Of a DNA stretch of 64,000 nucleotides, positions 4,371-62,691 are shown piece after piece. The notes beneath the pieces are model-generated. The model was given only the letters and a program-made list of their open reading frames with translations, had not been told where the DNA came from and did no database searches. How positions within the stretch are numbered: position 1 is the first letter of the stretch; the number at the start of each line of letters is the position of its first letter. The stretch lies in NCBI GenBank assembly GCA_964593055.1, contig CAZQIG010000002.1, positions 28,631-92,630 on the forward strand, in the 5' to 3' direction. This DNA is from an uncultured Erysipelotrichia bacterium. Its GTDB lineage: Bacteria > Bacillota_I > Bacilli_A > JBKEDG01. The position numbers and the translations under genes are program-made.

Positions 4371-4467
4371 GGAAACAAGAAGGTAACTGGTGTGCCTACC
4401 GGTCTTCAAAACCGGATTGCGGCATTAAATTGTCGTGGGTGGGTTCGATTCCCATTTGTTTCCGCCA
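4371..4467 (+). tRNA. selC: tRNA-Sec (selC), anticodon UCA
   Basis: 97 nt, GGAAACAA...TTGTTTCC-G-CCA. It has an 8-bp acceptor stem, a long variable arm, the anticodon loop CUUCAAA (TCA at 4406-4408) and an encoded CCA. It is adjacent to selenoprotein genes. Confidence 0.8.
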
Positions 4468-14982: not shown

Positions 14983-15249
14983 ATGCATTGTAGTTATTTT
15001 TTTGGGAGTAATTTAAGTATAGGAAGACATTTTATAGGTGGTGGAATTATGATGGTACTATTTTGGATCGCTATTATATTATTAGGAGTAGCTTTATATA
15101 ATGCTTTTAAGAAAAAATCTGGAGATAAAATATCTACAGAAACTGAATCAACATCAGAAGCATTAAGAATTTTACAATTAAGATATGCTAATAGTGAAAT
15201 TGATGAAAAAGAATATCTTCAAAAAAAGGGACAATTAAATAGTAAATAA
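14983..15249 (+). CDS. Small membrane protein with a C-terminal SHOCT domain
   Basis: One TM segment, then ALRILQLRYANSEIDEKEYLQKKGQL, which is SHOCT-like. Confidence 0.5.
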   Translation: MHCSYFFGSNLSIGRHFIGGGIMMVLFWIAIILLGVALYNAFKKKSGDKISTETESTSEALRILQLRYANSEIDEKEYLQKKGQLNSK

Positions 15250-15252
15250 TAA

Positions 15253-15288
15253 AATACACTCCATAATATAGGAGTGTATTTTATATAT
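15253..15288 (+). terminator. Intrinsic terminator closing the arsR-ATPase operon
   Basis: AATACACTCC-ataatata-GGAGTGTATT 10-bp stem followed by TTATATATTT. Confidence 0.6.
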
Positions 15289-15415
15289 TTGTAGTAATAA
15301 AAACTTATATCATACTACATAAACAGTGAGAATAATTAATAAAAATTTTCTTGCTTAAAAAAGCTTTTCATGATATAATACTGCGGACAAATTTATTTAT
15401 GAAATAGAGGAGAAT

Positions 15416-17384: not shown

Positions 17385-17681
17385 TTGATTGATGTTTTTG
17401 ATCTCAACTTAAATATATACTTCATAAGTATTATGTTTTTTCTTGCAACAGTGCCTTTATTGTCATTAAGTAATGGTTTGTATCATAGAAATGCGTTTGT
17501 TGTTTCAAATGCTATGATAATTGTAGTGCTGATGCTTTTAGTAGTATTAAATATTGGATTAGACTCAGAACTTAACTTTTTTCTTATTATAGTTTTGAAT
17601 AGTTTGGGAGTTTTTAATTTAATATATTTTTATTTAAGTGTAGACCTAGAAAAAAATGGCTTTAATACAGCCATACATTGA
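17385..17681 (+). CDS. Hypothetical small membrane protein
   Basis: 98 aa with three predicted TM segments and no recognisable motif. Confidence 0.3.
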   Translation: MIDVFDLNLNIYFISIMFFLATVPLLSLSNGLYHRNAFVVSNAMIIVVLMLLVVLNIGLDSELNFFLIIVLNSLGVFNLIYFYLSVDLEKNGFNTAIH

Positions 17682-17892
17682 AAATCAGAAAATTATTTTT
17701 TTAGATGAGCCATTTAATGTATTCGATAGAGGGCGGTAAATATTTTTGTTATAGTCAATCATAAATTCAACACTGATTTATAGAAAATTAGAACTCAAAC
17801 GTAGAGTTCTTTTTATTTTAGAAGAAATGAAGTCACTAAAAAAGGTTTAGTACATAGGAACAAAGATTGGAAGGGCATTCAATAAAAGAACA

Positions 17893-18009
17893 ACAAGAAT
17901 TAGTTGACTACTTGGATTATTTTCATGTTTTATTTGTTTGAAGTTGAATAGATTTTCGAGATTTTTTGAAGATAGGATATATTTTTTGCATGTTTTATAA
18001 ATTCATCAA
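17893..18009. repeat. R1 repeat, copy A (~117 bp, ~90% identical to 25099-25215)
   Basis: Aligned by eye: acaagaattagttgacYacttggattattttcatgttttatttgtttgaagttgaaYagaYtttcgagattttttgaagataggatatat...ttataaattcatcaa. Confidence 0.6.
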
Positions 18010-18402
18010 GTTGTTGGTAAAGTAAAAAAAGTTTATGAGGTAACTTATTTAAATGATGAAGAAGTTGAAATAAATTTAAAAAGTGAGTTCATTCATAGTG
18101 AAACAGTAGATGAAGGAGTATTATGTGAAACTAAAGTTATTCAAGATAATAAGAACAATTCTTTAGATAATGATTCAAAACAGACATATGACAATAGCGA
18201 TATACTTAAGATAGAAACACCGAAAGGAGCAGGTGGTACGGAAAATAAATCAGTATCTAAAGATGATATAGTTGCTCATAATAAGATGGGAGCATTTGCT
18301 AATAAGCTAGTATGTGAAAAATATGGTGATATTAATTATAAAGAACATGAGTTTTTAGACTTCTCGGATGGTAGCTTTAACATTCTGGGTATAAATAAAT
18401 AG
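18001..18402 (+). pseudogene. 3' fragment of a Rep_1-family rolling-circle replication initiator (no start codon)
   Basis: 134 in-frame codons ending ...AFANKLVCEKYGDINYKEHEFLDFSDGSFNILGINK*. This is paralogous to the C-terminus of the frameshifted Rep at 21988-22745. The EKYG..K region resembles the catalytic-Tyr motif III. Confidence 0.5.
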
Positions 18403-18522
18403 TTGAAATATATATAATAAAATGGTATATTTGTGTAAATAGGGAAGAAATCGTGAAAATAGTGATGAAAAAAATCATATATAATGATTGTGTCTAAATC
18501 ATTATATAAAGGGGAGAAAAAT

Positions 18523-18873
18523 ATGAAAAGATTCTTATCAATATTTATGTTATTATCTGTATTTTTTACATTTAATATCAATACACACGAAGTAGAGGCT
18601 GCTGTAAAGTGTAAAACTATCTATATAGGATATGGCAATCATAAAACAATTGTTTGTGAAGGAATTGATTACACATTCTTTAATGAGTATATATCAAAGC
18701 ATGAGATTCCGACTTTAGCATGGCAATCTGGTGCAAGTGTTAAGCGTAAAGGTGATGGGGTAAAAGAATGTCGTACAAGCCGTATGGGTTACATGGTTAA
18801 GGCAGATATCAGAGTCAATGGTAATGGCGCAAAATATTATCAAGGCCCTAGTTGTTATGTTGATACATATTAA
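18523..18873 (+). CDS. Secreted Cys-containing small protein (signal peptide plus ~90-aa mature part with 4 Cys)
   Basis: RBS AAAGGGGAG before ATG 18523. Signal MKRFLSIFMLLSVFFTFNINTHEVEA. It lies upstream of an ABC exporter pair. Confidence 0.5.
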   Translation: MKRFLSIFMLLSVFFTFNINTHEVEAAVKCKTIYIGYGNHKTIVCEGIDYTFFNEYISKHEIPTLAWQSGASVKRKGDGVKECRTSRMGYMVKADIRVNGNGAKYYQGPSCYVDTY

Positions 18874-18880
18874 AGGAGAA

Positions 18881-18912
18881 TAGCGCTTATTATTATAAGC
18901 GCTAACTTTTTA
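18881..18912 (+). terminator. Hairpin plus T-tract between the secreted-protein gene and the ABC permease
   Basis: TAGCGCTTAT-tatt-ATAAGCGCTA 10-bp stem followed by ACTTTTTA. Confidence 0.5.
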
Positions 18913-20825
18913 TGAAAAAAAATAGTATAACAATTATTTTAATAGTATTTATAGCCAACATAATTTTTTTAAATTATTTTTCTGATTCCAATATTATTAA
19001 ATTAAATGATGGAAAGTATGAAATTAATATTAAAAACATTGAAAATATTCATGATTTTTTACTATACATAGAAATAAATGAAATTGATGTTCAGGTAGAT
19101 GCTGAATATAATGAAGAATATCATACTTTTATTAGCGAATCATATATAAAAAGAACAGGTTTGGACAGCAATAAAAATTGTTTTACAGATAGTTTTAATT
19201 TTTATTTTTCAGAAAAAACCAACTATTGTAAATTAAATATGCTACCTTCTTTTAATGAAAGTTATAATTTTATTAATGATGATGATTTTACGTTAATGAA
19301 GGAATACTTAACAAGAAACAATATCGAATATTCTGTGACATCATTTAATTATATTTTAGAAACTATAGATTATACAATCATCTTTATAATAATGGCTATT
19401 TTGTTGATGTTGTTATTTCTGTTTGATGCGCAACATAATTTGAAAGTAAAAGCCATTTTAAAATTGAGTGGTTATAGTACTCTTGAAATTATTTTGAAAT
19501 ATTTTAAAATAATTTTTTTAGTAAGCACATTAGCTATTTTATTAATTTTATTATTTGATGCTGCTTTAATTATCTATTCAACACAAGTTTCAGAATTTAC
19601 AATTTTTGTGAAAAATTTTGGTTTGAATTTTATAGTAATTTCCTTTGGGATATATTTTCTCTATTTTATGGCTAATCTTTTAAATAACAAAATTAATATT
19701 TTAAAAATATTAAAAGGTAAAATCTCTAAACCTATTGTTTTCACACTTATTTTTACGACAAAATTACTCTTATCAGCATCACTAATTGCTATAGTTATTT
19801 TTAGTGTAATTGAAGTTTATGAAGTTATTGGTGATTTTAGTAATAAAAAACATTGGGATAAGTATGAAGATTATTATAAAATCGGTAACGATGATTATGG
19901 TAGTGATACATTTAGTAAATTTGTAACAGACAATTATGATAATATTATTTACTTTGACTATTATATTCCGAGTGATTATGAATCATATCAAACATATTGT
20001 GTAAATGAAAAAAAATCAATAACATACTGTCATGAGGTAAGGGTGTCCAAATTATTCTATCACGATTTAAGTTTAGATTTAAGTTTAGATATGAATGAAT
20101 ATAATTATGATTTACTAGTATTAGTTCCAGAAATTCATGAGAATGATATTGAAGTAATAAAAAATGAGCATAGCATAATGTACCCAGAATTAGATCTTTT
20201 CTACATTAGTGTCGATGACTATAAATTGTATTCTTATGACACTGGTACAAATATTTTAAATAGAGATTACATTATAGAACCATTAATTGTGATAGATGTT
20301 AAAGGTACACTTGCAAATGAATATTACGAAAATTTGAATAATGCTTATATTTATTCAAGTGATGTTCCTAATATAACTAATTATGTAATAGATTCTGATG
20401 ATATTAAAGGTATTAGGATTGATGAAAGTTTGAAGAAATATTATGAAGATTACTTTAATATAAAAGTCTTTAGGGCTTTGATTATTATCTTAGTAACTTT
20501 TATTGGTATGGCTCTATTAAATATTAATAATAATTATTTTATCAATCAGACAATTAATTTTACAATTGAAAAATCCATAGTTATGAAAACTAATGGTTTT
20601 AGTAACTTTGATATCTATTACTTTATTTATAGCTTTGTAATTTTTGTTTATATGATTACAGCTTTTCTAATTTACTTAATGACAAAAAGCTTTATTGACC
20701 TTAGTTATGTACTGTTAGTTTTATCAGGAGTGTTTATTATATTGGATTGTACTATGATTAATCACAAAATTAATAAGATTGAAAAAACTAAAATAGTAGA
20801 ATTTTTAAAAGGAGGCAGACTATGA
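18912..20825 (+). CDS. ABC transporter permease, FtsX/MacB-like (antimicrobial-peptide exporter type)
   Basis: 637 aa. TM1 is followed by a large extracytoplasmic domain and a 3-TM FtsX-like bundle, repeated. It is translationally coupled to the downstream ATPase. Confidence 0.55.
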   Translation: MKKNSITIILIVFIANIIFLNYFSDSNIIKLNDGKYEINIKNIENIHDFLLYIEINEIDVQVDAEYNEEYHTFISESYIKRTGLDSNKNCFTDSFNFYFSEKTNYCKLNMLPSFNESYNFINDDDFTLMKEYLTRNNIEYSVTSFNYILETIDYTIIFIIMAILLMLLFLFDAQHNLKVKAILKLSGYSTLEIILKYFKIIFLVSTLAILLILLFDAALIIYSTQVSEFTIFVKNFGLNFIVISFGIYFLYFMANLLNNKINILKILKGKISKPIVFTLIFTTKLLLSASLIAIVIFSVIEVYEVIGDFSNKKHWDKYEDYYKIGNDDYGSDTFSKFVTDNYDNIIYFDYYIPSDYESYQTYCVNEKKSITYCHEVRVSKLFYHDLSLDLSLDMNEYNYDLLVLVPEIHENDIEVIKNEHSIMYPELDLFYISVDDYKLYSYDTGTNILNRDYIIEPLIVIDVKGTLANEYYENLNNAYIYSSDVPNITNYVIDSDDIKGIRIDESLKKYYEDYFNIKVFRALIIILVTFIGMALLNINNNYFINQTINFTIEKSIVMKTNGFSNFDIYYFIYSFVIFVYMITAFLIYLMTKSFIDLSYVLLVLSGVFIILDCTMINHKINKIEKTKIVEFLKGGRL

Positions 20826-21445
20826 TTAAGATTAAAAATTTGAGTAAAAAATTCGATGATAAAAATATATTTAATAATTTAAATCTCTCTTTTGACAAGA
20901 GTGAGCTTGTAGCTATTATTGGTAAGAGTGGTTGTGGTAAAAGTACTTTACTCAATATTATTGGATTACTAGAAAGTTATGATGGAAATCTTGAAATACT
21001 AGGTAAAAATAATCCGAATCTTAATAAAAAAGATGGTCGAGAGCTTTTAAAAAATGAAATTGGATTTATTTTTCAAAACTTTGCTTTGATTGATAATTTG
21101 ACAGTTAGTCAAAATCTGAAGCTCGTCAGTAAGTATAACAACTCTGATTTAAGCTTTGAAGATGCTTTAAAAAAAACTGATACATTAGATTTAATTGACA
21201 AAAAGGTGTCTCAATTAAGTGGTGGTGAACAACAAAGAGTGGCTATTAGTAGGCTAATTTTAAAAAATCCTCAAATTATCTTAGCTGATGAACCAACAGG
21301 AAGCTTAGATGAAGAAAATAGAGATAAGATTTTGGCATTAATGAGAAATTTTGTAGATAATGGGAAACTTGTAATTATTGTTACGCATGAAAAAGAAATA
21401 GCAAACAAGTGTGATGTAATTATCAACTTGGAGGAATATGTATGA
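20822..21445 (+). CDS. ABC transporter ATP-binding protein
   Basis: Walker A GKSGCGKST, signature LSGGEQQRV, Walker B ILADEPTGSLD. Confidence 0.85.
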   Translation: MIKIKNLSKKFDDKNIFNNLNLSFDKSELVAIIGKSGCGKSTLLNIIGLLESYDGNLEILGKNNPNLNKKDGRELLKNEIGFIFQNFALIDNLTVSQNLKLVSKYNNSDLSFEDALKKTDTLDLIDKKVSQLSGGEQQRVAISRLILKNPQIILADEPTGSLDEENRDKILALMRNFVDNGKLVIIVTHEKEIANKCDVIINLEEYV

Positions 21446-21912
21446 AAAAGATTTTTGTGCTCTTATTGGTGTTGATAATATTTTTTATTGGAGGGTATTT
21501 AATCTTTTTGAGTTTATCTGATAAAGAAATGAAATTGTATACTAAAGAGTTTTATGAACTAGGTTATACAGATTTTGATGATAAAGAGAATATTTATTCT
21601 AAAAAAGATACTTATGAAGGTTATAATACAACATATAGCTATCACTTGAGTTCAAATTACTTGAGTGTCAGTGTCTTTTTGAACAATAATACGCATATGT
21701 ATAATTTAGCATCAGATGATGGAAAGTTAATAGATTATGTTTTCTTAAATTTTGAAGAAAATACTAAATTTGAATGTAATGTTGGTGAAAGTGAGATATT
21801 TCAAGACAAGTGTCCAGATATTTATGGTGTATATAATGAAGCAAATGTAATTGAAGTTCTTGAAAAGATGTATGATGAAGAATTAATAAAAATAGAAAAT
21901 ATTATTGATTAA
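21442..21912 (+). CDS. Membrane-anchored extracytoplasmic hypothetical protein
   Basis: N-terminal TM followed by a Cys-containing soluble domain. It overlaps the ATPase stop. Confidence 0.4.
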   Translation: MKKIFVLLLVLIIFFIGGYLIFLSLSDKEMKLYTKEFYELGYTDFDDKENIYSKKDTYEGYNTTYSYHLSSNYLSVSVFLNNNTHMYNLASDDGKLIDYVFLNFEENTKFECNVGESEIFQDKCPDIYGVYNEANVIEVLEKMYDEELIKIENIID

Positions 21913-21987
21913 TTTTTTATAACTGTATATTAAAATTAGTGTTTTGGAGCTTTAATAGCTCTTTTTATTTTAGAAAAAGGAGAAAGT

Positions 21988-22745
21988 ATGCAACTAAAAA
22001 AGGATTTAGTACAAAAAGTAAATATAAAGAAGAACCAAATAATTTATAACTACTATTTAAAAAGTAGTGCATACAATAGAGAAGTAAAAGACTTTAGAGA
22101 TGGAACGCATCTAACAGTAGGAGATAAGCTGGTCTATAAAGTAAGCTCCACAACACTTGTTTGATGGGATATAATTTCAATCATACACTTTCTCCTTGTT
22201 ACATAAACTATAATAATAAATTAAACTTACTAAAACTATCGGAGATATTTGATAGTTTTTTTGAAAAGTATCATATAGATGAGAAGTTTTTCTTTGTAAC
22301 GCTAACAATGCCAAGTCTAAAGTCGGACATAGAGTTGTTAGAAGAAAATAACAAACTGATTAAAAAAGCTAATCAAGTTATTACTAGCTTATATAAACAG
22401 CTAGAAAAGAAGTATGGAACAAATGAATTAATCAAAAAGTATGAAGTCACATATAGTACAGTAAAGGTGATGTTTACAGTCACCCATATTTTCATTTAAT
22501 CATAACATTACCGCCGAATGTATGGCAGATGAAAAGTACAGAGTTAGAAGTGTCGTCAAGAGAGTATATTATAAATTACTAGTATAAGCACTTTTTAAGT
22601 AAGCATTTTGAAATTAAATTTGAAGATGCATTAGGATCATTTGCAAATGAAGTAGCATGTGAAAAATATGGTGAAAACAATTATAAGACACATGAGTGTT
22701 TACCACTATCAGATGGAAGTTTTAATATTATTGGTATAAATAAAT
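21988..22745 (+). pseudogene. Rep_1-family (pC194/pUB110-type) rolling-circle replication initiator, disrupted by at least two frameshifts
   Basis: Three consecutive frames give an N-terminal piece (MQLKKDLVQ...), then FFFVTLTMPS (motif I FLTLT-like) to HPYFHLII (HUH motif II), then ...SFANEVACEKYGENNYK...GINK* (motif III Tyr region). Confidence 0.55.
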
Positions 22746-22862
22746 AGTTGAAATGTAGATGGTAAAATGGTATATTTATGTAAACAAGACATACTTTGTA
22801 AATAAAAGGGGGATAGTATAAACACATTATTAATGTCCAAATACATTATAAGGGTGGTTATT

Positions 22863-23900
22863 ATGAAAAAAATAATTCGTCAAATAATAATTATAATTTT
22901 GGGTGTGGTTGTATTAGTGCCGTCGCACATTAATGCTATAAGTAAAAGTAGTGATAAAAATAGTAACGCATTTGAAACTTATATTCCAGAGTCACTAGAA
23001 TATGATGAATATACAATTGATTTTTATAAGGAATATAAAAATTATAGGTTAGCAAAAGATGAAATACTTAGAAAATATAATAGCTTAATAGTGAAGTATA
23101 ATAAAGAGTATGAAGAAAACTTGAAATTAGAAACATATGATGATATTCAAAATGCAATAGCATATGGGGTACTATTGATGGATGATGACCAGTTTTATAA
23201 GAAGGCAGGTGAATTTGTGGGAAAATTAGATATTTTGGAAAACACGTTTAAAAATAGTGATATAAACATATTATATAAATCATTGTTTAAAAGAAATGCT
23301 AATGAGTTCAATTCACTATCAATGCTTGCCATTTCAACTCCAGCCAATGAAAATAGCCAAGATATTTATAAAAATGTAGTGGAACCAGCAATTGGAAGAC
23401 AACGTGCGTCTTTCAATAAAAGTAATGCAATTAATTATGCAAAAAAACATGCAACAAATAGGAATAGCAGTTATAAAAGTTTAGATTTAGATTGTACAAA
23501 TTTTGCATCACAAATTTTAAGAGCTGGTGGATGGTCGTATACAGCTACATGGAGATATAGTTCCTTAAAAATTCCTAAAACATGGTCAAGAGCTGATTAT
23601 TTTGTGAAGTACTGGTCAAAATATGATAGCACAACTTGGGGTAGTTTTAATACTTTAACAACCTATGTGCGTGGCGGAGATTTTATTACATATGATAGCT
23701 CTAGAGATGGTGACTGGGATCATGTTGCTTTTGTGACCGCTAGATCATCATCATATTATCGTCAAAACGGTAGAAAATATTATTCAACGAAGATTGCACA
23801 GCATACTTCTGATTATCACAAATGGGCATACTATACAGGTTGGCAAAATTTTGACACCTCTTCTAGAGATAGGTATTATAGATATTTACGTTTTTGGTAA
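22863..23900 (+). CDS. Secreted protein with a C-terminal putative amidase (Amidase_6-like, papain-fold Cys/His) domain
   Basis: Signal peptide MKKIIRQIIIIILGVVVLVPSHINA. The C-terminal region contains DLDCTNFASQILRAGGW ... DWDHVAFV. ATG 22863 follows a GGGTGG RBS. Confidence 0.45.
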   Translation: MKKIIRQIIIIILGVVVLVPSHINAISKSSDKNSNAFETYIPESLEYDEYTIDFYKEYKNYRLAKDEILRKYNSLIVKYNKEYEENLKLETYDDIQNAIAYGVLLMDDDQFYKKAGEFVGKLDILENTFKNSDINILYKSLFKRNANEFNSLSMLAISTPANENSQDIYKNVVEPAIGRQRASFNKSNAINYAKKHATNRNSSYKSLDLDCTNFASQILRAGGWSYTATWRYSSLKIPKTWSRADYFVKYWSKYDSTTWGSFNTLTTYVRGGDFITYDSSRDGDWDHVAFVTARSSSYYRQNGRKYYSTKIAQHTSDYHKWAYYTGWQNFDTSSRDRYYRYLRFW

Positions 23901-23921
23901 TTAATTGAAAGGGGATAGGAA

Positions 23922-24479
23922 ATGAAAAAATTCAATCTTTTATTAATTGTGGTTGTATTGCTTTCAGGATGTAATAAAGATACGGGATTTAACTATGAAG
24001 ATGCAAATTTTAGAGTAAATAACAAATATTATCCGATAAAAAATGAAGATGATTTTAATAGATATTATAGTGTTCCAAAGTCAATATATAATGACTCGGA
24101 AAGTGAAATTTTCAATACTAAAACTAATTATATTAATCCATATTTGATTGGAGATATGTATAATATTGGGATAGAAAGTTTTAATGAAAAATATTACATG
24201 GGTAATACAGGGATCTACTATTTAATAGAAGATACAGCTTTGAAGGATTTTGAGGAGATATCAATTATTATAGGAATGGAATTTTTTGCACAAGATATTT
24301 ATTATAAGAGTATCATTGTTAATGGTGAGTGCGAACTAAATATTAGCTATGAAGATTTAGATAATAATGTAGTTAATTATTCATCTTCTGAGGAAGCATG
24401 TGAACTGTTAAAAGAATATAACGAAGAATTTTATGATGAATTAAATAATTATTTAAAATCAGCTTATGGATATGAGTAG
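23922..24479 (+). CDS. Lipoprotein, hypothetical
   Basis: Lipobox LLSGC at residues 13-17; 185 aa; two Cys in the mature part. Confidence 0.5.
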   Translation: MKKFNLLLIVVVLLSGCNKDTGFNYEDANFRVNNKYYPIKNEDDFNRYYSVPKSIYNDSESEIFNTKTNYINPYLIGDMYNIGIESFNEKYYMGNTGIYYLIEDTALKDFEEISIIIGMEFFAQDIYYKSIIVNGECELNISYEDLDNNVVNYSSSEEACELLKEYNEEFYDELNNYLKSAYGYE

Positions 24480-24684
24480 TATGAAAGCTTTATTTTCATG
24501 TAAATATCTATAGAGTGATTAGAATACTATGTAGAATATATGATTAATTTATGTGTCATGTGGTAATTTAAGAGCTTTATGTAAAAGTTAATGGAATTTA
24601 GAACTATGAAGGAAAGATTATTCATTATATGGTACGTATAAAGCAAGATGTAATCACTAAAAACAATAGACAGGAGTTAAATAA

Positions 24685-24990
24685 GTGGAAATAGTTTATT
24701 TTGAACCAAATTCAATTTTTGTGTTACTGTTATTTTTAGGACTCTTCTATTTAGCAACATTCACAATATGTTTGGTTACTATTAAATTTGATGTTCTGGG
24801 GAAATTGTTTTTAGTAGTATCTTTACTATTGTATTTATATGTTGGATATTATATGACAGCTGCTAGTTATTATGCTGATGACAAGTCACTGGATATATTT
24901 TCAAGTTATGGATATTTGGAATTAATAATATTAGTATATCCTTACATATTTTTATCAATAGCATGTAGGTTTGGAGAGAAAAAAAATTAA
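24685..24990 (+). CDS. Hypothetical small membrane protein
   Basis: 101 aa with 3 TM segments. GTG start. Confidence 0.3.
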   Translation: MEIVYFEPNSIFVLLLFLGLFYLATFTICLVTIKFDVLGKLFLVVSLLLYLYVGYYMTAASYYADDKSLDIFSSYGYLELIILVYPYIFLSIACRFGEKKN

Positions 24991-25098
24991 AATAATATAA
25001 TTTTTATACAATTTCTGCAAACGAGTTCAATTAATAAATTGAGCTCGTTTTATTTTGAAAGGAAGGAGAAAGTGCTTAAAATTTAAAAAGACCGCTTT

Positions 25099-25215
25099 AC
25101 AAGAATTAGTTGACCACTTGGATTATTTTCATGTTTTATTTGTTTGAAGTTGAACAGACTTTCGAGATTTTTTGAAGATAGGATATATCTTTTAAAAGTC
25201 TTATAAATTCATCAA
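25099..25215. repeat. R1 repeat, copy B
   Basis: ~90% identical to 17893-18009. No ORF follows this copy. Confidence 0.6.
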
Positions 25216-25649
25216 ATAAAACTGGTTAGTATTATGAAGCAGATTAACATGACAAATACTCCATGAAATTTAGCACTGTATGTGTAAAGTGCTGTAATCT
25301 AGACATGATTAATGAAAACATTAAAATGTAGTATGTTGGTAAAGCAGCTAAAAATGAGTATCATTTTGGAAGAGAACCTTAGGGTTATTTGAAAAATAAA
25401 GAGGAAAAATTAGTTTAGAATCTTAAGGTTAAAGAAACTAATATTATTGGTACTATCGACTTTACTTTAAATAATTTTATGAAACAATGATAAAAGAATT
25501 TAGTGAGGCACAAACTTTGCAAATAAAAACAATTTAAGAGTTAAGGCAATTTCATATGTTCTAGGTTTGTTTTAAGAAAAGAGTCTAATTATGACAGTTG
25601 TTTTTGAAAGAGACATAAAATCAGAATAACTATTTGATATTTTTGTCTT

Positions 25650-25709
25650 TTTTAGTTTTTCTTCCATTGTACAGGTGCATATAAAAACCCCTAAAGTTAG
25701 AATAGTATA
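25650..25709. repeat. R2 repeat, copy A (~60 bp, 3 mismatches vs 27024-27084)
   Basis: Aligned by eye: tttttagtttttcttccattgtacaRgtgcatataaaaacccctaaagttagaRtagtata. The minus strand reads TATACTA..AGGGG-8 nt-ATGCACYTGTACAATGGAAGAAAAACTAAAAA, i.e. a conserved -10-like box, RBS and start of a tiny ORF. Confidence 0.55.
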
Positions 25710-25936
25710 GTTGTTACTATTGTTCTTGTAAAGTTTATAAAATAATTTGATTAAAAGATATATCAACATTATTAGTTATTTAATTGTGTTATACTTAATA
25801 TAAGAAGTATTGAATCATAAATATGGAAGGAGTGAAAATGAGTATATTTAGATTACTAACTTTAGAGAATCATTCAGAATTAGAAATATTAAGTATAGTT
25901 TAATAAAGAATTCTTTAATGATGGAGGCTAATTATA

Positions 25937-26542
25937 ATGAAAAAAACTTTAAATTTGATACTAGTCTTAGTAATTCTTGTATCCACAGGTAGTATTTATA
26001 ATATCAACAAAGGATTTAATTTGTTTTCCAAAGTAATTGAAGCCAATGAGAATGAATACTATGATGATACAGTAGAAAATTTAATAGAATCAGTTAATGA
26101 TTATGATGTGATAAGAATTAATGATGATAAGTATGGAACTAGGTATCTGGGTGGTTATTATGAGTATAAATATTCTCATACTATAACGTATAATGACAAA
26201 TATTTAGGTGTGCACCCTAATTTTTCAGCTTCAAATCCATTATACTCTGATGGCTATTATTTTAGTACTACTAATGATAAAAGGTTTAGTGCATCAGTTA
26301 GTGTAGGGGTTAAATTTGTTTCTGTATCATTTAATGTAGATGCTTCTAGTTCTGTGGGTAGTGGTTACTTTAGGAGTGCTAGTTCTTCTAGAAAGTCTTT
26401 ACCGTATATAAGAGCGGATTTAAAAGTTAAATTCTATGATATGTATATTTATGACGATTATGGAAAACTCTTAGCTATATCACGTGATTATTATACTCAA
26501 ACAACTACATCAGATAGACAAATTTTTATAAAATACTTTTAA
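25937..26542 (+). CDS. Secreted hypothetical protein
   Basis: Signal peptide MKKTLNLILVLVILVSTGSIYN. 201 aa, Tyr/Ser-rich. Confidence 0.4.
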   Translation: MKKTLNLILVLVILVSTGSIYNINKGFNLFSKVIEANENEYYDDTVENLIESVNDYDVIRINDDKYGTRYLGGYYEYKYSHTITYNDKYLGVHPNFSASNPLYSDGYYFSTTNDKRFSASVSVGVKFVSVSFNVDASSSVGSGYFRSASSSRKSLPYIRADLKVKFYDMYIYDDYGKLLAISRDYYTQTTTSDRQIFIKYF

Positions 26543-26564
26543 AGTTTGATTTTAGGGGGAGAAT

Positions 26565-26819
26565 ATGAAAAAAGAAATTATTAAAGCGTTCATATATACT
26601 TTACTTATAGTTGCAATATTTATATTATTAGATAATTACATAGGTTATGTAACTAGCAATTATGTATTAGAATCGTTTCTTGACAATTATAAAGAAATGA
26701 TCAATATATTTTTTCATATATTTACCATTATATTGATTATAATGTGCACAAAATATATACTATATAAAAGAAATAATGATGATATGATTACATTTGAGCG
26801 AAAAGACAATAGTAAATAG
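26565..26819 (+). CDS. Small 2-TM membrane protein
   Basis: 84 aa. RBS GGGGGAG before the ATG. Confidence 0.35.
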   Translation: MKKEIIKAFIYTLLIVAIFILLDNYIGYVTSNYVLESFLDNYKEMINIFFHIFTIILIIMCTKYILYKRNNDDMITFERKDNSK

Positions 26820-27023
26820 AGTAATAGTCTAATAAGAGAGTTAATGCCATTATAGTTGGATATTTAAATTATGATGCCGTTTTAATACAATTATGAATGG
26901 AAGATTTGTAACATAATGGAGAATCAGATTTAAATAAACTAAATGAATGTACAGAAAAATGAGGAGACAAGTATCAGTATAAATTTAAGCTGTAGAGACA
27001 ATTGGAGCTTTCATTTTTAGTTT

Positions 27024-27084
27024 TTCTTCCATTGTACAAGTGCATATAAAAACCCCTAAAGTTAGAGTAGTATATTTATTATAC
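27024..27084. repeat. R2 repeat, copy B
   Basis: Lies ~40 bp from the 3' end of tRNA-Gly. Confidence 0.55.
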
Positions 27085-27121
27085 AATTCTCTCCAACTTA
27101 TGGGGTCTTTTCAATTCTAAA

Positions 27122-27195
27122 TGGAGCGGGTGAAGGGAATCGAACCCTCACAGTCAGCTTGGAAGGCTGAAGTTCTACCATTAAACTACACCCGC
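27122..27195 (-). tRNA. tRNA-Gly (anticodon UCC)
   Basis: Reverse complement GCGGGTGTAGTTTAATGGTAGAACTTCAGCCTTCCAAGCTGA...TTCGATTCCCTTCACCCGCTCCA; CCA is encoded. Confidence 0.85.
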
Positions 27196-27196
27196 A

Positions 27197-27272
27197 TGGC
27201 GGTCCAGACGGGATTCGAACCCGCGATCTCCGCTGTGACAGAGCGGCATGTTAACCACTACACCACTGGACC
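27197..27272 (-). tRNA. tRNA-Asp (anticodon GUC)
   Basis: Reverse complement GGTCCAGTGGTGTAGTGGTTAACATGCCGCTCTGTCACAGCGG...GGTTCGAATCCCGTCTGGACCGCCA. Confidence 0.85.
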
Positions 27273-56123: not shown

Positions 56124-56200
56124 GGCGGTGTAGCTCAGCTGGCTAGAGCGTTCGGTTCATACCCGAAAGGTCGGGGGTTCGATCCCCTCCGCCGCTACCA
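56124..56200 (+). tRNA. tRNA-Met (anticodon CAU; elongator-type)
   Basis: GGCGGTGTAGCTCAGCTGGCTAGAGCGTTCGGTTCATACCCGAA...GGTTCGATCCCCTCCGCCGCTACCA. Confidence 0.85.
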
Positions 56201-56670: not shown

Positions 56671-57084
56671 ATGAAAAAAAGGATTGTATTATTTATTATT
56701 TCAGTAATTATTTTGTTATTAATCTTAATCATAATTTTTTATAATACTAAAAATAGTTGTGAAAAAGGGTTAGCAACTTATATTATAAAAAATGATTTAG
56801 TACAAACTAGAGAAATTACTTTTAACTCAGAAGCGTGGTGTGCAGGTAAATATGTTATATCTGTATGGGAAGAAGTGTATGATGAAAACGATGTTTTGAT
56901 TTCTACAATTGTTGCTAGTGGAGATGAAGAGATAGAAGTTTTTATTGATGATGGAGACTCTATAACTGAAGTAGAGTTTTTAGGAGAAGAACAAGTAATA
57001 AAAATAGCTATAGGAGATAAGTTGATAATTGAGTTTTTAAATGAGGATACAGAGCAAGAAATAAAGCTATATTATAAAGATTAA
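56671..57084 (+). CDS. Membrane-anchored hypothetical protein immediately upstream of cas13a
   Basis: 137 aa, N-terminal TM, acidic C-terminal domain, GGTGA RBS. Confidence 0.4.
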   Translation: MKKRIVLFIISVIILLLILIIIFYNTKNSCEKGLATYIIKNDLVQTREITFNSEAWCAGKYVISVWEEVYDENDVLISTIVASGDEEIEVFIDDGDSITEVEFLGEEQVIKIAIGDKLIIEFLNEDTEQEIKLYYKD

Positions 57085-57134: not shown

Positions 57135-57163
57135 TTGACAGCATTAATATAAAATGTGATAAT
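57135..57163 (+). promoter_or_regulatory. Near-consensus sigma-A promoter for the effector gene (TTGACA-17-TGtGATAAT)
   Basis: -35 TTGACA at 57135-57140 and extended -10 TGnGATAAT at 57155-57163. This places ATG 57156 inside the promoter, so the real start is ATG 57222 after the GTGGGGGGA RBS. Confidence 0.55.
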
Positions 57164-57221: not shown

Positions 57222-60200
57222 ATGAGAATAACTAAGCAAAAGTGGTACTGTGTTAGTGGTGTAGAAAATGAGCTGTTTTACGACAAGTATAATAGAAGAT
57301 ATTTTTATTTAAAAGAAAATAATCAAAGGTGTGTAATTGATAAAAACGATTTTTACATACAATTAAAAACAAGAGGGAATAGTCAAAATAAAGAGTTTAA
57401 TATTCTAAAAAAGAAAAATATTTACAAAAAAGATATGTCTAGTTATAAAAAACTTGAAGAAAAAATAGATTTCAAAAGTAAAACTAAACTATATTTTAAA
57501 AGAGGTGGAAAATATTCTGAAATTTATGATAATGAAAAACAGTTAGCAGTAAATCGTCATAATTTTATTTGTGATATTAATAGTATTCATAACGAATTTT
57601 TAAAAGAAACTATGAAGCATGAAAAAGTTGATGAAGATATCTGTAATAATTTTACCGATAAATATTTTAATGTAATTGACAAATATACGAAAGAAAGTGA
57701 AGAAGTTATAAGTGATAAAGCGTTACGCGATTCAAGGTCTGTATCTATTTCAAAGATTTTGAAGCATAATGAAAAATCTTTAATAAATAGATTTGGAACA
57801 AGAGCTATTGAATGTGAAATTCAATTAGCAAAATCAATTATTAATTTTCATAAGAAACAGAAGCTTTCCAAAAAACTGAATGAATTTTATACAGAATTAA
57901 CTAAAGAATATAACAGAAGTATGAAAAGATATGGATTAACTTCTAAAAATTCAAAAAGTAATAGAAATGATATTATTGAAAGTTTGAATTATAATAAAAT
58001 TTTAGAGATTAGTACATTTAATGATTTAAAAAATAAAATCGGTGTAGTAATTGAAGCTTATGACTTATCTAAATTATGTGTAAAAATTATTGATAATAAA
58101 GCAACATATTATAAAGAGTTTAAAAATCCTAATGGAAAAAATAATATTAAATATACTTTATTTGATGACATAAGAAAACATTATCAAGACACCTTTAAAA
58201 ATTTTGATGAAAAAATGAAAGACACTATTAATAATAGCTGTTTAATTGTTAAAGAAAATGAATATAAATTTGTTTTGAAGTATGTTCATAATTATGTATT
58301 AGGTAGAGCAAGAAAAATAAAAAAATATGTTGAAAGTAAAGATTTAGAACTTGAGGATGACTTTATTGAAAAGGCTTTTGAACACAAGAAATTAAAAACA
58401 AAAATAGAAAATAGGGTTCTTTCTACTTTTAATACTCAACTGAATAGTATGAAAAAAGAAAAAGCCTTAGATTTGACTGAAAATCTAGAAAAAGAAATTG
58501 GGTTGCAGTTAGCAAAAATTCAAGATACGTATTCTAATAAATTAAATAATTTAATTTACGAAACAGTATACAAATTTTTATCTTCCATCGATAGAAAAAA
58601 TGATATATTGGGAGCAAGTGAATTATGTGACTTAAAGAAGGATATAGGAGAAACAAAATTTGAAAGTAATAAAGAACTATATATATCAGCATATTTGTTG
58701 AGAAACTATACAATTCATTACCAAAATTTTGATAAACAAAATGAAATTAGAGATGATAATGCTTTTAGTTTGAAAAATTATTGCCCCAAGTCATCAGTAG
58801 ATAAAATAAGCAAATATGTTGTGTCACAGTTTGAGTATAATAATACATTTAAATATATTGATAATAATATATTTAAAAAATCAATAGACTTACTTCAATT
58901 AAATCATATTAAGGATTTAATATTTCCAAGGTTTGATAAAATTTTCAAACTTATAGTAAATGATAAAAATTTTAAATGTTTTGAGCCTAAATTATTTTTT
59001 GATTTAAATGATGAGTTTAAATTTTGTTATAAATACTTATTGAATAGAATTTATTCACAGGGATTTGCAACAAACACTGATAAAACTAAAAATTACCTTG
59101 AAAAAAAACAGCAATTTATGAACGAGTGTCATGGTAATGTAGTAATGGTAGAAAAACAAATAATTGAGCTTATTGCTCAAGATTTTATAGAATATTTATC
59201 TGATAATAAGATTGAATTTAATTTGAATGATGATTTTGATAAATGTAATATAGATGAAAATAAAAGATACTTAGAATTAAAGTTAAAGAAATTTGAATTT
59301 TCAGATTATAATTCAATTAAAGATTCAAATGATTTTATTATTAGTATATATCATCTAGGAATTAATGCAACAGTTGAAATATTGAGTGAGTTATTGCAAA
59401 ATACTATAAAATATAAGTCCCTTTTAATAAGTTTGAAAGAAAAGTATAAAGAAGAGCATAAGATTTTTTTAGAAGCTTTCCAAAAAGTAACTCGATTTAA
59501 TGAAGAATTTTATACTAGTATTGAGTGTTATTTGAGCGAATTTGAGAAATTAATAAAAATATTAAAAAATGAATTGATGATTAAAAATTATGATTTAAAT
59601 AGTAATTTAAATTGTCATAATAAATTCGAGAGTGAATTATTGAAAATTTTCAATAAAAATAGCAGGGTAGAATTTAAAAGTCTTGATGAAGTAAAATATC
59701 AAAAAGCGAATAAAAATAATGAAAGTATTGAAGTGAATCTTTGGAAACCAGAAAGTAAAACTAAAAATGTTGATATAATAAACAATAAGTTTTTAATTAG
59801 AGAGTATACTAATGGAACACTAAAGTTCAGCTTAGATTTACATACTCATTGTATGAAAGAAACAAAATTGTACTATAATGAAATTATTGCTGAAATAAAT
59901 ACGTTTAATAAAACTATATCTAGGGATGATTTATTAGAAAATAAAGATTTGATAGATACAATTATGGGTTCTAAAGATAATCATAAGCAATTTGAAAGTA
60001 TGTCTAGAATAGTATATTATCAAAAAATGAGGCAATTAATCCAGGGTAAATATAAAGAGCTTTATAACGAAGCAAAAATGAATAATAAAAATAGGAGAAT
60101 TTTATACTCGGATATTTTTAAAGATAATAAAGAATTAGTAAATAAAACAAGCGCAATTCACAAAGAAGCAAGTGATGGAATAAATAAGTATAATTTTTAT

Positions 60201-60683
60201 ATGAACTTGCTTAAACTTACTACAATTAGTAAAATTAAAAAATATAATAGTGAGTTTCATGCAAGGTTTATGTCTTGGATATTTCAAGGTGAAAAATTTG
60301 CTGGCAATATTTATAATACTAAAAAACCTATTGGGCAATTATTGTCGAAAAGGTCTATTGATTCAAATAATAATTTGAATCAATTTAGAAATGACATTGC
60401 TCACTTGAATAATTTTCAAGAAAATAATAAAAGCTCTAAAAGCTATAGTGACTATATAGATGATATCAAAAGATATAACTCGTATAGTACTATGAAAAGA
60501 AAAGAGGTATCTATTGTTATTGATAAAATTAGAACAAAGTATTTAGCTTCTAATGATAATATACACAAAGTTTTTAATAAAAAAAATGGGTATGAGTGTG
60601 ATTTAAATAACAATAGTGCTGAAGAAGTAAAATATTATTTGGAATTTGAAAAATTTAATTGGGATAGATCAAACAATGTCTAA
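57222..60683 (+). CDS. cas13a: Type VI-A CRISPR effector Cas13a (C2c2)-like, RNA-guided RNase with two HEPN R-x4-H motifs
   Basis: ~1153 aa, Lys/Asn-rich, with no RuvC or HNH signatures. RNYTIH is at codons 494-499 (nt 58701-58718). RNDIAH is at codons 1056-1061 (nt 60387-60404). cas1-cas2 and a co-oriented array with a Leptotrichia-Cas13a-like repeat lie directly downstream. Confidence 0.85.
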   Translation: MRITKQKWYCVSGVENELFYDKYNRRYFYLKENNQRCVIDKNDFYIQLKTRGNSQNKEFNILKKKNIYKKDMSSYKKLEEKIDFKSKTKLYFKRGGKYSEIYDNEKQLAVNRHNFICDINSIHNEFLKETMKHEKVDEDICNNFTDKYFNVIDKYTKESEEVISDKALRDSRSVSISKILKHNEKSLINRFGTRAIECEIQLAKSIINFHKKQKLSKKLNEFYTELTKEYNRSMKRYGLTSKNSKSNRNDIIESLNYNKILEISTFNDLKNKIGVVIEAYDLSKLCVKIIDNKATYYKEFKNPNGKNNIKYTLFDDIRKHYQDTFKNFDEKMKDTINNSCLIVKENEYKFVLKYVHNYVLGRARKIKKYVESKDLELEDDFIEKAFEHKKLKTKIENRVLSTFNTQLNSMKKEKALDLTENLEKEIGLQLAKIQDTYSNKLNNLIYETVYKFLSSIDRKNDILGASELCDLKKDIGETKFESNKELYISAYLLRNYTIHYQNFDKQNEIRDDNAFSLKNYCPKSSVDKISKYVVSQFEYNNTFKYIDNNIFKKSIDLLQLNHIKDLIFPRFDKIFKLIVNDKNFKCFEPKLFFDLNDEFKFCYKYLLNRIYSQGFATNTDKTKNYLEKKQQFMNECHGNVVMVEKQIIELIAQDFIEYLSDNKIEFNLNDDFDKCNIDENKRYLELKLKKFEFSDYNSIKDSNDFIISIYHLGINATVEILSELLQNTIKYKSLLISLKEKYKEEHKIFLEAFQKVTRFNEEFYTSIECYLSEFEKLIKILKNELMIKNYDLNSNLNCHNKFESELLKIFNKNSRVEFKSLDEVKYQKANKNNESIEVNLWKPESKTKNVDIINNKFLIREYTNGTLKFSLDLHTHCMKETKLYYNEIIAEINTFNKTISRDDLLENKDLIDTIMGSKDNHKQFESMSRIVYYQKMRQLIQGKYKELYNEAKMNNKNRRILYSDIFKDNKELVNKTSAIHKEASDGINKYNFYMNLLKLTTISKIKKYNSEFHARFMSWIFQGEKFAGNIYNTKKPIGQLLSKRSIDSNNNLNQFRNDIAHLNNFQENNKSSKSYSDYIDDIKRYNSYSTMKRKEVSIVIDKIRTKYLASNDNIHKVFNKKNGYECDLNNNSAEEVKYYLEFEKFNWDRSNNV

Positions 60684-61572
60684 TACAATATTTGTAAAGC
60701 AAGGTAGTAAGTTAAAAATTAGCGATGCAAATTTGTGTGTAGAAGTAGATAGTGAGTATAACTTAATCCCATTTAATGAAATAGAAATAATAATTATTGA
60801 AAATTTGAGATGTAGTATAACTGCAAGCGTTATAGTCGAATGTAGTATGAAAGGCATTCCAATAATATATTGTAATAATAAGCATACACCAGTTGCGACA
60901 ACAGATAGCTTATATTCTTACCATAGGCAAACCAAAAAGATACAAGAACAAATGTTATGGACTACTATTAGAAAAGAAAGACTATTTGTAAAAATTGTTG
61001 AAAGAAAAATTAAAAATCAATGTAATCTTTTGAAGTACATATATGATGATATAGATGAAAAATATTTTGAAGAAAAAATACGATCATTAAATAAAGAAAA
61101 TGTATTGAGTGTAGAAGCACAAGTTGCAAAGAAATACTTTAATAACTTGTATGGCTCAGAATTCAAAAGACATGAAAAAGATTATCCAAACTTTCTTTTG
61201 AATTATGGCTATGCTATAATTAGAAGCAAGATAAGACAAGTTATTGTAAGTAAAGGATTACATCCATCACTTGGAATAATGCATAACAATCAATTTAACA
61301 ACTATAATTTAAGTGATGATATTATCGAAGTTTATAGACCATTAATTGATTACTATGTGCATGTTATTTTAAAATCAAGTTTTGAAGAAAGCCAAGCAAA
61401 AAACATTTTACAAGGTCTATTATTTCAAAGAGTGATGTATGATGGAGTGGAAACAGGAGTAAGGTTGAGTATAGAGCTATTTGTAGATGGCATAATTAAG
61501 TATATGAATAAATCTAATAAGGAAATAGTAATGCCCATTTTGGAGGTTGATATGTATGAGCTCCAAATATAA
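60676..61572 (+). CDS. cas1: CRISPR integrase Cas1
   Basis: The Cas1 C-terminal signature NYGYAIIRSKIRQVIVSKGLHPSLGIMHNNQFNNYNLSDDIIEVYRPLIDYYV is present. It overlaps the cas13a stop. An alternative TTG start is at 60646. Confidence 0.85.
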   Translation: MSNTIFVKQGSKLKISDANLCVEVDSEYNLIPFNEIEIIIIENLRCSITASVIVECSMKGIPIIYCNNKHTPVATTDSLYSYHRQTKKIQEQMLWTTIRKERLFVKIVERKIKNQCNLLKYIYDDIDEKYFEEKIRSLNKENVLSVEAQVAKKYFNNLYGSEFKRHEKDYPNFLLNYGYAIIRSKIRQVIVSKGLHPSLGIMHNNQFNNYNLSDDIIEVYRPLIDYYVHVILKSSFEESQAKNILQGLLFQRVMYDGVETGVRLSIELFVDGIIKYMNKSNKEIVMPILEVDMYELQI

Positions 61573-61879
61573 AACAATTTTATTTTATGATTTTGCGTGT
61601 AGGACAAAGAAGGAGAAAAGGGAGTTTCAAAGATTTAATAAAGGAATAAAAAAGCTTGGATTTATGATGATACAAAAATCAGTATATGTAAGAAGCATTA
61701 AAAGCAAGGAAGAGTATGCAAATATAAAAGCTAGAATAATGATAAGAGAGAATAATAACAATGATATAAGAATAGTGCTTTTAACTAATTCAAAGTATGA
61801 AGAGATAGAGATGATATCAGGACAAGAAACCTTAACAGATATGGTATTGACAAGCAAAAAAAATGTAATTAATTTATAA
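61556..61879 (+). CDS. cas2: CRISPR adaptation protein Cas2
   Basis: ~107 aa, MSSKYKTILFYDFACRTKKEKREFQRFNKGIKKLGFMMIQKSVYV (Cas2 beta1-alpha1-beta2 pattern). GGAGG RBS. It overlaps the cas1 end. Confidence 0.75.
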   Translation: MSSKYKTILFYDFACRTKKEKREFQRFNKGIKKLGFMMIQKSVYVRSIKSKEEYANIKARIMIRENNNNDIRIVLLTNSKYEEIEMISGQETLTDMVLTSKKNVINL

Positions 61880-61984
61880 GAAGTACTTAAAATTCGAAAC
61901 TATTTTCTAAAAAAAAAGAAAAAACAGTATTTGAAATACCAAAAACGTTGTTATATCAATAAAAAAATATGTTATATGTTTGCG
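61880..61984 (+). promoter_or_regulatory. CRISPR leader (A/T-rich, ~105 bp) between cas2 and the first repeat
   Basis: The A-rich stretch contains TTGAAA and TATGTTATAT promoter-like boxes. The degenerate repeat lies at the far end of the array, so this end is leader-proximal. Confidence 0.5.
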
Positions 61985-62625
61985 GATTTATTACACCCCA
62001 AAAACGAAGGGGACTAAAACCGTAGGAAGTGTTGGGTTAAAACCAACAGTATGATTTATTACACCCCAAAAACGAAGGGGACTAAAACTTTTGTTGAATC
62101 GCTTCTATTATAATACTCTCTGATTTATTACACCCCAAAAACGAAGGGGACTAAAACGTTTAGTAAGAATTTTGTTAATTGTGGTACGGATTTATTACAC
62201 CCCAAAAACGAAGGGGACTAAAACATTCCTGGACACCTCTTATTATAGTAAAAAGATTTATTACACCCCAAAAACGAAGGGGACTAAAACGGGATAATAT
62301 TCTCATCATTAATCGCGATAATGATTTATTACACCCCAAAAACGAAGGGGACTAAAACTGAATATTGGTCATAAAGTGAATCGAACACTGATTTATTACA
62401 CCCCAAAAACGAAGGGGACTAAAACACGGTTTGGAATTTATTGCTTTGGTTAGTTGATTTATTACACCCCAAAAACGAAGGGGACTAAAACTATAAGTTT
62501 TATTTTCGTTATTTATTATTTTGATTTATTACACCCCAAAAACGAAGGGGACTAAAACTGTAGCAATGACTTTTTTCCCATCAACTCCAGATTTATTACA
62601 CCCCCAAGAGGTATTAGAATATTAA
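61985..62625 (+). CRISPR. CRISPR array: 9 identical 36-nt repeats (GATTTATTACACCCCAAAAACGAAGGGGACTAAAAC) plus 1 degenerate terminal repeat; 9 spacers of 30-33 nt
   Basis: Repeat starts are at 61985, 62053, 62122, 62189, 62255, 62323, 62390, 62456 and 62523. The degenerate repeat starts at 62590 (GATTTATTACACCCCCAAGAGG...). Each repeat has an internal CCCC...GGGG stem. Confidence 0.95.
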
Positions 62626-62661
62626 TATGATTATGTAGTTTATGAATATAAGCACAAAAAA

Positions 62662-62691
62662 AGAGTTGAATTAGTTTATTCAACTCTTTTT
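62662..62691. terminator. Terminator downstream of the CRISPR array
   Basis: AGAGTTGAAT-tagttt-ATTCAACTCT 10-bp stem flanked by an A-tract and a T-tract. Confidence 0.55.

Follow-up and report, generated by a model that had tools for sequence, protein, structure and literature searches.

Among described CRISPR systems, those closest to the locus reported here are the type VI-A systems of Leptotrichia, to which the Cas13a proteins of L. wadei, L. buccalis and L. shahii belong. In the CRISPR RNA (crRNA) of Cas13a, the spacer is preceded by a 5′ handle that derives from the repeat and ends in ...GACUAAAAC, and type II-like Cas1 proteins are usual in type VI-A loci. Here we describe a locus of this kind in a 64,000-nt stretch of contig CAZQIG010000002.1 (assembly GCA_964593055.1, positions 28,631 to 92,630), referred to below as the window, in whose own numbering all coordinates are given. 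Positions 61985-62625 very probably hold the array of a type VI-A-like CRISPR locus that is complete and lies in the chromosome of an uncultured, Mollicutes-like bacterium. The array itself is of ordinary type VI-A style, and the effector encoded beside it is a very divergent Cas13a variant combined with a canonical crRNA repeat.

The CRISPR array

The array is built from a 36-nt repeat present in nine copies without mismatch on the + strand, and ends in a degenerate tenth copy. Its features are as follows.

61985-62558, + strand: nine perfect repeats, GATTTATTACACCCCAAAAACGAAGGGGACTAAAAC, starting at 61985, 62053, 62122, 62189, 62255, 62323, 62390, 62456 and 62523 and interleaved with spacers S1 to S8; each repeat is predicted to supply the 5′ handle for the crRNA of the spacer that follows it
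62021-62052, + strand: spacer S1, 32 nt, leader-proximal, CGTAGGAAGTGTTGGGTTAAAACCAACAGTAT
62089-62121, + strand: spacer S2, 33 nt, TTTTGTTGAATCGCTTCTATTATAATACTCTCT
62158-62188, + strand: spacer S3, 31 nt, GTTTAGTAAGAATTTTGTTAATTGTGGTACG
62225-62254, + strand: spacer S4, 30 nt, ATTCCTGGACACCTCTTATTATAGTAAAAA
62291-62322, + strand: spacer S5, 32 nt, GGGATAATATTCTCATCATTAATCGCGATAAT
62359-62389, + strand: spacer S6, 31 nt, TGAATATTGGTCATAAAGTGAATCGAACACT
62426-62455, + strand: spacer S7, 30 nt, ACGGTTTGGAATTTATTGCTTTGGTTAGTT
62492-62522, + strand: spacer S8, 31 nt, 10% G+C and of low complexity, TATAAGTTTTATTTTCGTTATTTATTATTTT
62559-62589, + strand: spacer S9, 31 nt, presumably the oldest, TGTAGCAATGACTTTTTTCCCATCAACTCCA
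62590-62625, + strand: degenerate tenth (terminal) repeat, GATTTATTACACCCCCAAGAGGTATTAGAATATTAA

A CRISPR array is generically recognised by three or more identical direct repeats, each 23-50 nt long, with unique spacers of comparable length between them; such a series is found at 61985-62625, with a regularity far beyond chance. The repeats follow one another at start-to-start spacings of 68, 69, 67, 66, 68, 67, 66, 67 and 67 nt, and the nine spacers (32, 33, 31, 30, 32, 31, 30, 31 and 31 nt for S1 to S9) are mutually unrelated in sequence. A first-pass annotation of this DNA had described nine perfect repeats, a mutated distal repeat and the same series of spacer lengths; we recovered this structure over exactly the range it gave, and all nine lengths agreed. 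No further repeat copy was found on either strand of the window, nor was a second tandem array found within it. The tenth repeat retains its first 15 nt and is 25/36 identical to the others in an ungapped comparison, its stem and its GACTAAAAC 3′ handle being gone. This copy appears dispensable, since the handle lies 5′ of the spacer, and all nine spacers should be loadable in principle because each follows a perfect repeat. Within S1, a terminator scan flagged a 6-bp inverted repeat (TGTTGG...CCAACA, 62030-62048), which may originate from a hairpin-containing site in the source of this spacer.

Type VI-A repeats are characterised by a short G/C stem with a loop rich in A/U, and by a conserved 3′ handle, ...GGGGACTAAAAC, that abuts the spacer. 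All of these elements are present in the window repeat, which folds into a 4-bp CCCC/GGGG stem with a 9-nt loop (-6.1 kcal/mol) and has the 3′ end GACTAAAAC. Scanning the repeat core CCCCAAWAWYGAAGGGGACTAAAAC against 185,579 species genomes (GTDB), among which the host of the window is not represented, yielded 19 loci. Their hosts comprise a Leptotrichia rugosa plasmid, a Leptotrichia metagenome-assembled genome (MAG), Fusobacteriaceae MAGs, Fusobacterium sp. PH5-44, Clostridia MAGs, a Mycoplasmatales MAG and a Culicoidibacterales MAG. The 36-nt repeats of these loci are identical to the window repeat at 28-32 of 36 positions and differ from it only at positions 4-10 and in the loop. Large proteins adjoining four of the related arrays score 272-637 bits on the NCBIfam model NF038188 cas13A_C2c2 (cut-off 150), and those at four other loci score 0-89 bits. 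Because similar repeats thus adjoin model-positive Cas13a genes, we regard the window repeat as a bona fide type VI-A repeat.

Locus layout and proposed mechanism

On the + strand, the effector gene is followed by cas1, cas2, a leader, the array, a terminator-like hairpin and then yitT. The components around the array are listed below.

57222-60683, + strand: effector gene, 1153 aa from the ATG at 57222, divergent Cas13a-like
60676-61572, + strand: cas1, 298 aa, type II-like clade (TIGR03639, 232 bits, cut-off 120; PADLOC Cas1_II, 3.9e-80; PF01867)
61556-61879, + strand: cas2, 107 aa (TIGR01573, 49 bits, cut-off 24.5; Cas2_II, 1.1e-20; PF09827)
61880-61984, + strand: leader, 105 nt, 21% G+C, from the cas2 stop codon to repeat 1
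62658-62691: terminator-like, A/T-flanked hairpin GAGTTGAAT...ATTCAACTC followed by TTTTT, 32 nt past the array and before yitT

The effector gene and cas1 share 8 nt at their junction. The ATG of the effector at 57222 stands behind a GGGGGA ribosome-binding site, and gene callers place the start at 57162, which gives 1173 aa. The + strand as written is taken as the crRNA strand, because it is on this strand that a Cas13a 5′ handle of the GACUAAAAC type stands before each spacer, and a functional target RNA would accordingly have to carry the reverse complement of the spacer. This reading agrees with the orientation of the cas genes, the distal position of the decayed repeat and the downstream terminator: effector, cas1, cas2 and handle all point in the + direction, and the decayed repeat lies at the trailer end, at 62590.

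Based on this layout, we propose that the array would be transcribed left to right on the + strand, by transcription that either starts in the leader or reads through from the cas operon and that would stop at the hairpin at 62658-62691. The effector would bind the repeat stem-loop and 3′ handle and cut the precursor, releasing crRNAs that each consist of the repeat-derived 5′ handle and then the spacer. A transcript with the reverse complement of a spacer could then switch on the HEPN RNase, which would cut both target and bystander RNA and thereby stall the infected cell in growth arrest. New spacers would be derived from DNA and added at the leader end by Cas1-Cas2, which would make S1 the newest.

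A divergent Cas13a-like effector

Cas13a proteins are expected to be approximately 1100-1400 aa long and to carry two HEPN R-x4-H motifs, the first in the middle of the protein and the second close to the C-terminus. The effector contains exactly two RxxxxH motifs in its 1153 aa, at the positions expected for HEPN1 and HEPN2 in a Cas13a of its size, and so shows this architecture.

58701-58718, + strand: HEPN1 motif RNYTIH, residues 494-499
60387-60404, + strand: HEPN2 motif RNDIAH, residues 1056-1061

Relatives of the effector are rare. A HMMER scan with full filter coverage of 1.84 billion representative proteins recovered eight clade members including the effector itself, the seven others being P0002, P0007, P0012 and four fragments (P0008-P0011). 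A word-indexed protein search returned only the effector itself and P0002, since low-complexity words crowd its candidate list. P0002 (MGL5123362.1, from a Fusobacteriaceae MAG) is 26-29% identical to the effector, and both HEPN motifs are kept in the pairwise alignment (AYLLRNYxxH and RNDIxHLN). It also matches NF038188 with 24 bits (E 8e-6) in the collinear HEPN1 region. When the effector clade was compared with an alignment of model-positive canonical Cas13a using hhalign, the two were aligned with a probability of 97.9% (E 3.3e-13) over 275 collinear columns including HEPN1; these columns pair RNYTIH with RHGIVH and PRFxKI with PSFTKL. A comparison restricted to the C-terminal HEPN2 region paired RNDIAHLN with RNYIAHFN (E 4e-4). 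Searching an AlphaFold2 model of the effector against the PDB with Foldseek gave ten best matches that were all Cas13a (E 6e-7 to 3e-4, 820-1185 columns), among them the structures from Listeria seeligeri, Leptotrichia shahii and Lachnospiraceae, whereas Cas13d matched more weakly (E 0.01-0.1). Homology and fold thus favour Cas13a over other Cas13 subtypes, in a model with a pLDDT of 59.6 and TM-scores of 0.2-0.3. Together, the NF038188 match of P0002, the profile-profile alignment and the fold comparison establish the effector as a remote homologue of Cas13a, and we therefore treat it as a deep, unmodelled branch of this family that lies below the curated membership threshold.

The genomic surroundings of the relatives resemble those of the effector. 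P0002, P0012 and the effector of a Mycoplasmatales MAG (locus L023, CALDDH010000009.1) adjoin arrays with repeats ending in GACTAAAAC, and a Pfam-confirmed cas1-cas2 pair follows P0002. The Mycoplasmatales locus holds two open reading frames (ORFs) of 298 and 117 aa that are cas1/cas2-like by size only. Its order is these two ORFs, an array, the effector and a second array; relatives of the effector with Cas13a-type arrays on both sides of the gene are seen at this locus and at L016.

One 36-nt repeat, GATTGAGACTACCCCAATATTGAAGGGGACTAAAAC, is shared without difference by two Fusobacteriaceae MAGs of a single project (L014/L025, JBOFUX010000045.1, and L028, JBOFOQ010000034.1). It stands beside a canonical Cas13a at L028 (383 bits on NF038188) and beside the divergent P0002 (24 bits) at L014/L025, and a BLASTP comparison of the L028 Cas13a with P0002 gave no similarity (E=11). 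At the leader end of the L014 array (15214-15349), the first two spacers are identical (ATTGTATGTTACTACAATGTATTGAGATTTTA), which represents a duplicated repeat-spacer unit.

Tentatively, and at somewhat less than even confidence, we suggest that the locus represents a separate deep branch of Cas13a that existing models do not cover. This branch would comprise about eight proteins among 1.84 billion representatives, distributed over Mollicutes-like bacteria and Fusobacteriaceae, in which a Leptotrichia-type crRNA repeat has remained almost unchanged and the protein has moved beyond sequence recognition.

Searches for spacer targets

To place the spacers, the INPHARED phages (2.3 Gb) and PLSDB plasmids (7.3 Gb) were searched by blastn with a word size of 11 and the nine spacers concatenated. 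IMG/VR was scanned for exact 18-23-nt cores of S1-S7 and S9 (eight of the nine spacers, S8 being left out), and JGI metagenomes were scanned for the exact cores of S1 and S2 only (two of nine).

Within the array-masked window, the best ungapped identities of the spacers are 19-23 of 30-33 positions, the level reached by shuffled spacers. Shuffled versions equalled a spacer's observed identity in a fraction of 0.02 to 0.99 of cases, and the lowest values (S1, 0.02; S9, 0.04) are unremarkable for nine tests. This comparison included the accessory island at 17.7-27.1 kb, which the first-pass annotation had put forward, together with plasmid Rep remnants, as the obvious DNA to compare with the spacers; nothing beyond the shuffled level emerged. 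No Rep domain was detected among the ten island ORFs tested, and no spacer matches the island. The 9.7 kb further downstream likewise contain no match to any spacer. Among 104 spacers of related arrays, none is shared with S1-S9 and none matches the window, and S1-S9 match no other fetched locus.

In INPHARED and PLSDB, all spacer matches have E>=0.4, and none stands above chance. The best match of S8 covers 27/31 positions of the Rep gene of a rodent-faeces microvirus (bajarodmic virus 375; E=0.4), with the spacer antisense to the gene and three of the four mismatches at first codon positions rather than at wobble positions. S3 matches a RuvC-like gene of Carnobacterium phage cd2 at 25/31 positions (E=5). 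Both were examined and judged to be chance matches. In IMG/VR, five of the eight cores scanned (S1, S4, S6, S7 and S9) have no match, and those of S2, S3 and S5 were rejected as seed-only, extending to 21-24 of 31-33 positions (S3, 22-23/31; S5, 24/32 and 21/32; S2, 22-24/33 with JGI included). In the JGI metagenomes, the S1 core has no match and the S2 core has two seed-only matches (24/33). The spacers are also without strand or coding bias, with 16 stop-free frames in the forward and 17 in the reverse direction.

The targets of all nine spacers therefore cannot be identified within the window, the adjacent DNA and the phage, plasmid, viral-contig and metagenome collections searched. This leaves only the structural description of the array, as the first-pass annotation had foreseen for a lack of spacer matches. 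An absence of matches is expected here, because the nearest relative of the host has a DNA polymerase I identity of only 60%. The accompanying rule that protospacers must lie on the transcribed strand of their targets holds for interference and does not extend to acquisition: type VI adaptation modules take up DNA without antisense bias (PMC11662929). Since acquisition is unbiased in this respect, the interference orientation is not to be expected of about half of all natural spacers.

Weighing the assignment

Several results weigh against the assignment to type VI-A. The effector has no match among NCBIfam, Pfam and PADLOC models, and none among all PDB sequences even at E<=10 or with a family profile. 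Membership of NF038188 requires at least 150 bits, and against this model the effector has no match at E<=1. Even with all HMMER filters switched off (--max), no match to canonical Cas13a from the fetched loci was obtained. The AlphaFold2 model is itself of low confidence (pLDDT 59.6, pTM 0.43), and its TM-scores to Cas13a structures are only 0.2-0.3. A consensus sigma-70 promoter was not found in the 105-nt leader, exact-core scans miss protospacers with mismatches inside the core, and the activity of the locus is deduced from its intactness only. The empty HMMER searches are in part due to the composition (bias) filter, which let only one of 17 targets that had passed the MSV stage proceed when the K/N/I-rich effector was the query. 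More generally, 'no hit' outcomes for K/N/I-rich proteins of AT-rich genomes are partly an artefact of this filter. The name Cas13a, which the first-pass annotation had given to the effector, needs qualifying: every sequence model of Cas13a failed to recognise the protein, and only profile-profile and fold comparison do so.

That annotation had further taken perfect repeat identity as a sign of recent activity, and this view we do not uphold: perfect repeats are the norm among related arrays and hence no such sign. An active array would reveal itself by leader-end spacer polymorphism between strains or samples, or by matches to contemporary mobile elements. The window from 43181 to 63618 is 100% identical to contig JAHMFL010008393.1 of GCA_019826165.1, and the same DNA is present with 0-2 single-nucleotide polymorphisms (SNPs) in GCA_019826185.1, GCA_019826105.1 and the Logan assemblies SRR15291763, SRR15291766 and SRR15291767. 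Between GCA_019826165.1 and GCA_019826185.1 the array is identical base for base and the flanks differ by SNP. With two identical arrays, and no spacer match in the searched collections, no turnover is visible.

These observations could also be explained by an array that is now a static relic, carrying out neither acquisition nor interference and holding spacers that are memories of extinct elements. The identical array in two assemblies with SNP-differing flanks, the failure of every search to match a spacer and the lack of a recognised promoter in the leader are consistent with such a relic. However, the open frames of the effector, cas1 and cas2 run full length, neither HEPN motif is damaged and all nine repeats are perfect. 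The assemblies probably derive from one study and one population, so that identical arrays say little, and absent spacer matches are normal for uncultured hosts. We therefore consider a relic unlikely. Still harder to accept, and in our estimation extremely unlikely, is a reading of the array from the - strand, with a type II-like repeat (GTTTTAGTCCCC...) that serves some other effector. The reverse complement of the repeat does begin with GTTTTAG and folds slightly better (-7.4 kcal/mol), and the adjoining Cas1 belongs to the type II clade. Yet a Cas1 of this kind is usual for type VI-A, the window encodes no Cas9 or other effector, the cas genes are on the + strand with the decayed repeat far from them, and the same repeat orientation accompanies model-positive Cas13a genes at several fetched loci.

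Two further alternatives concern the spacers of the putative type VI-A array, and we consider both very improbable. S8 could be a diverged memory of the replication-initiator gene of a microvirus (Microviridae). Microviruses are known to infect Mollicutes, and in the 27/31 match to the Rep gene of bajarodmic virus 375 the spacer runs antisense to the coding strand, as required for function. Against this stand the E-value of 0.4 for a low-complexity spacer of 10% G+C and the concentration of mismatches (three of four) at first codon positions; moreover, the other spacers show no resemblance to this virus, and the window encodes no relative of its proteins. Alternatively, at least one spacer could target host transcripts encoded elsewhere in the genome and so have a regulatory or dormancy role. 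The mean G+C content of the spacers (~30%) equals that of the host (28.9%), and there is a precedent in the Cas13a arrays of Leptotrichia wadei, for which self-targeting spacers against rpmG and dnaK have been reported (PMC6914741). However, neither the 64-kb window nor the 9.7 kb downstream contains a match, and the identities observed are those of shuffled spacers.

Host and neighbouring features

For the DNA polymerase I encoded in the window, the nearest relative is 60% identical and no other exceeds ~51%; its named relatives come from Mollicutes, Tenericutes or Mycoplasmatota MAGs (46-49%). TGA is read as a stop codon in the window. Judged from the polymerase relatives and from this use of TGA, respectively, the host is an uncultured, deeply branching Mollicutes-like bacterium with the standard genetic code. 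A tRNA-SeC gene with anticodon TCA was predicted by ARAGORN at 4371-4467, which implies selenocysteine use in this Mollicutes-like host.

Upstream of the CRISPR-cas locus lies a tRNA-Met gene (56124-56200), followed by ~470 nt of AT-rich non-coding DNA (to 56670), and the locus (56.2-62.7 kb) may be an insertion beside this tRNA gene. Directly upstream of the effector, an ORF of 137 aa (56671-57084) encodes a protein with an N-terminal hydrophobic segment (membrane protein) that has no match in Pfam, NCBIfam or PADLOC. We rejected it as a conserved accessory gene, as it has no counterpart at related loci. The island at 17385-27272 ends at tRNA-Asp and tRNA-Gly genes (27122-27272, - strand), and Pfam matches among its ten tested ORFs were limited to an ABC ATPase (20822-21445) and an Amidase_6 protein (22833-23900).

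Comparison with known systems

As its spacers cannot be traced, the array adds no biological insight beyond recording type VI-A immunity in a Mollicutes-like lineage that is uncultured. A whole branch of Cas13a-like proteins escapes the standard annotation models (NCBIfam, PADLOC and Pfam), in part because the K/N/I-rich composition of these proteins trips the HMMER bias filter. The crRNA repeat, in contrast, still serves as a simple and dependable marker, and repeat-anchored searches could recover hidden type VI effectors. If the L028 Cas13a and P0002 use one crRNA, a single guide scaffold would serve two very different proteins in nature, and a shared crRNA would offer a new orthogonal or cross-compatible Cas13a for tool building. 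The branch could also be examined for crRNA cross-compatibility with LwaCas13a and LbuCas13a.

The nearest proteins to the window effector form an unnamed Cas13a-like clade (P0002, P0007, P0012, the L023 effector and P0008-P0011) that is 22-29% identical to it over most of its length. These are still very distant relatives, and no member has been characterised or named. The Leptotrichia type VI-A systems, represented among the loci recovered here by a Leptotrichia MAG (L027) and the L. rugosa plasmid (L017), are similar to the window locus in several respects. Their 36-nt repeat is identical at 31-32 of 36 positions, with the same CCCC-loop-GGGG stem and the same GACTAAAAC 3′ end. They also share spacers of 30-33 nt, a type II-like cas1-cas2 pair beside the array, a decayed terminal repeat, and an effector of ~1150 aa with HEPN motifs near residues 490 and 1060. 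However, the window effector lacks pairwise or HMM similarity to the Leptotrichia proteins and is linked to them only by profile-profile and fold comparison, and its host is Mollicutes-like, from a Bacillota lineage, rather than a fusobacterium. Cas13d (type VI-D) is likewise a two-HEPN RNA-guided RNase, and it appears among the weaker Foldseek matches. Unlike the effector described here, Cas13d has ~930 aa and is associated with another repeat, and both the stronger fold matches and the repeat of the window favour Cas13a.

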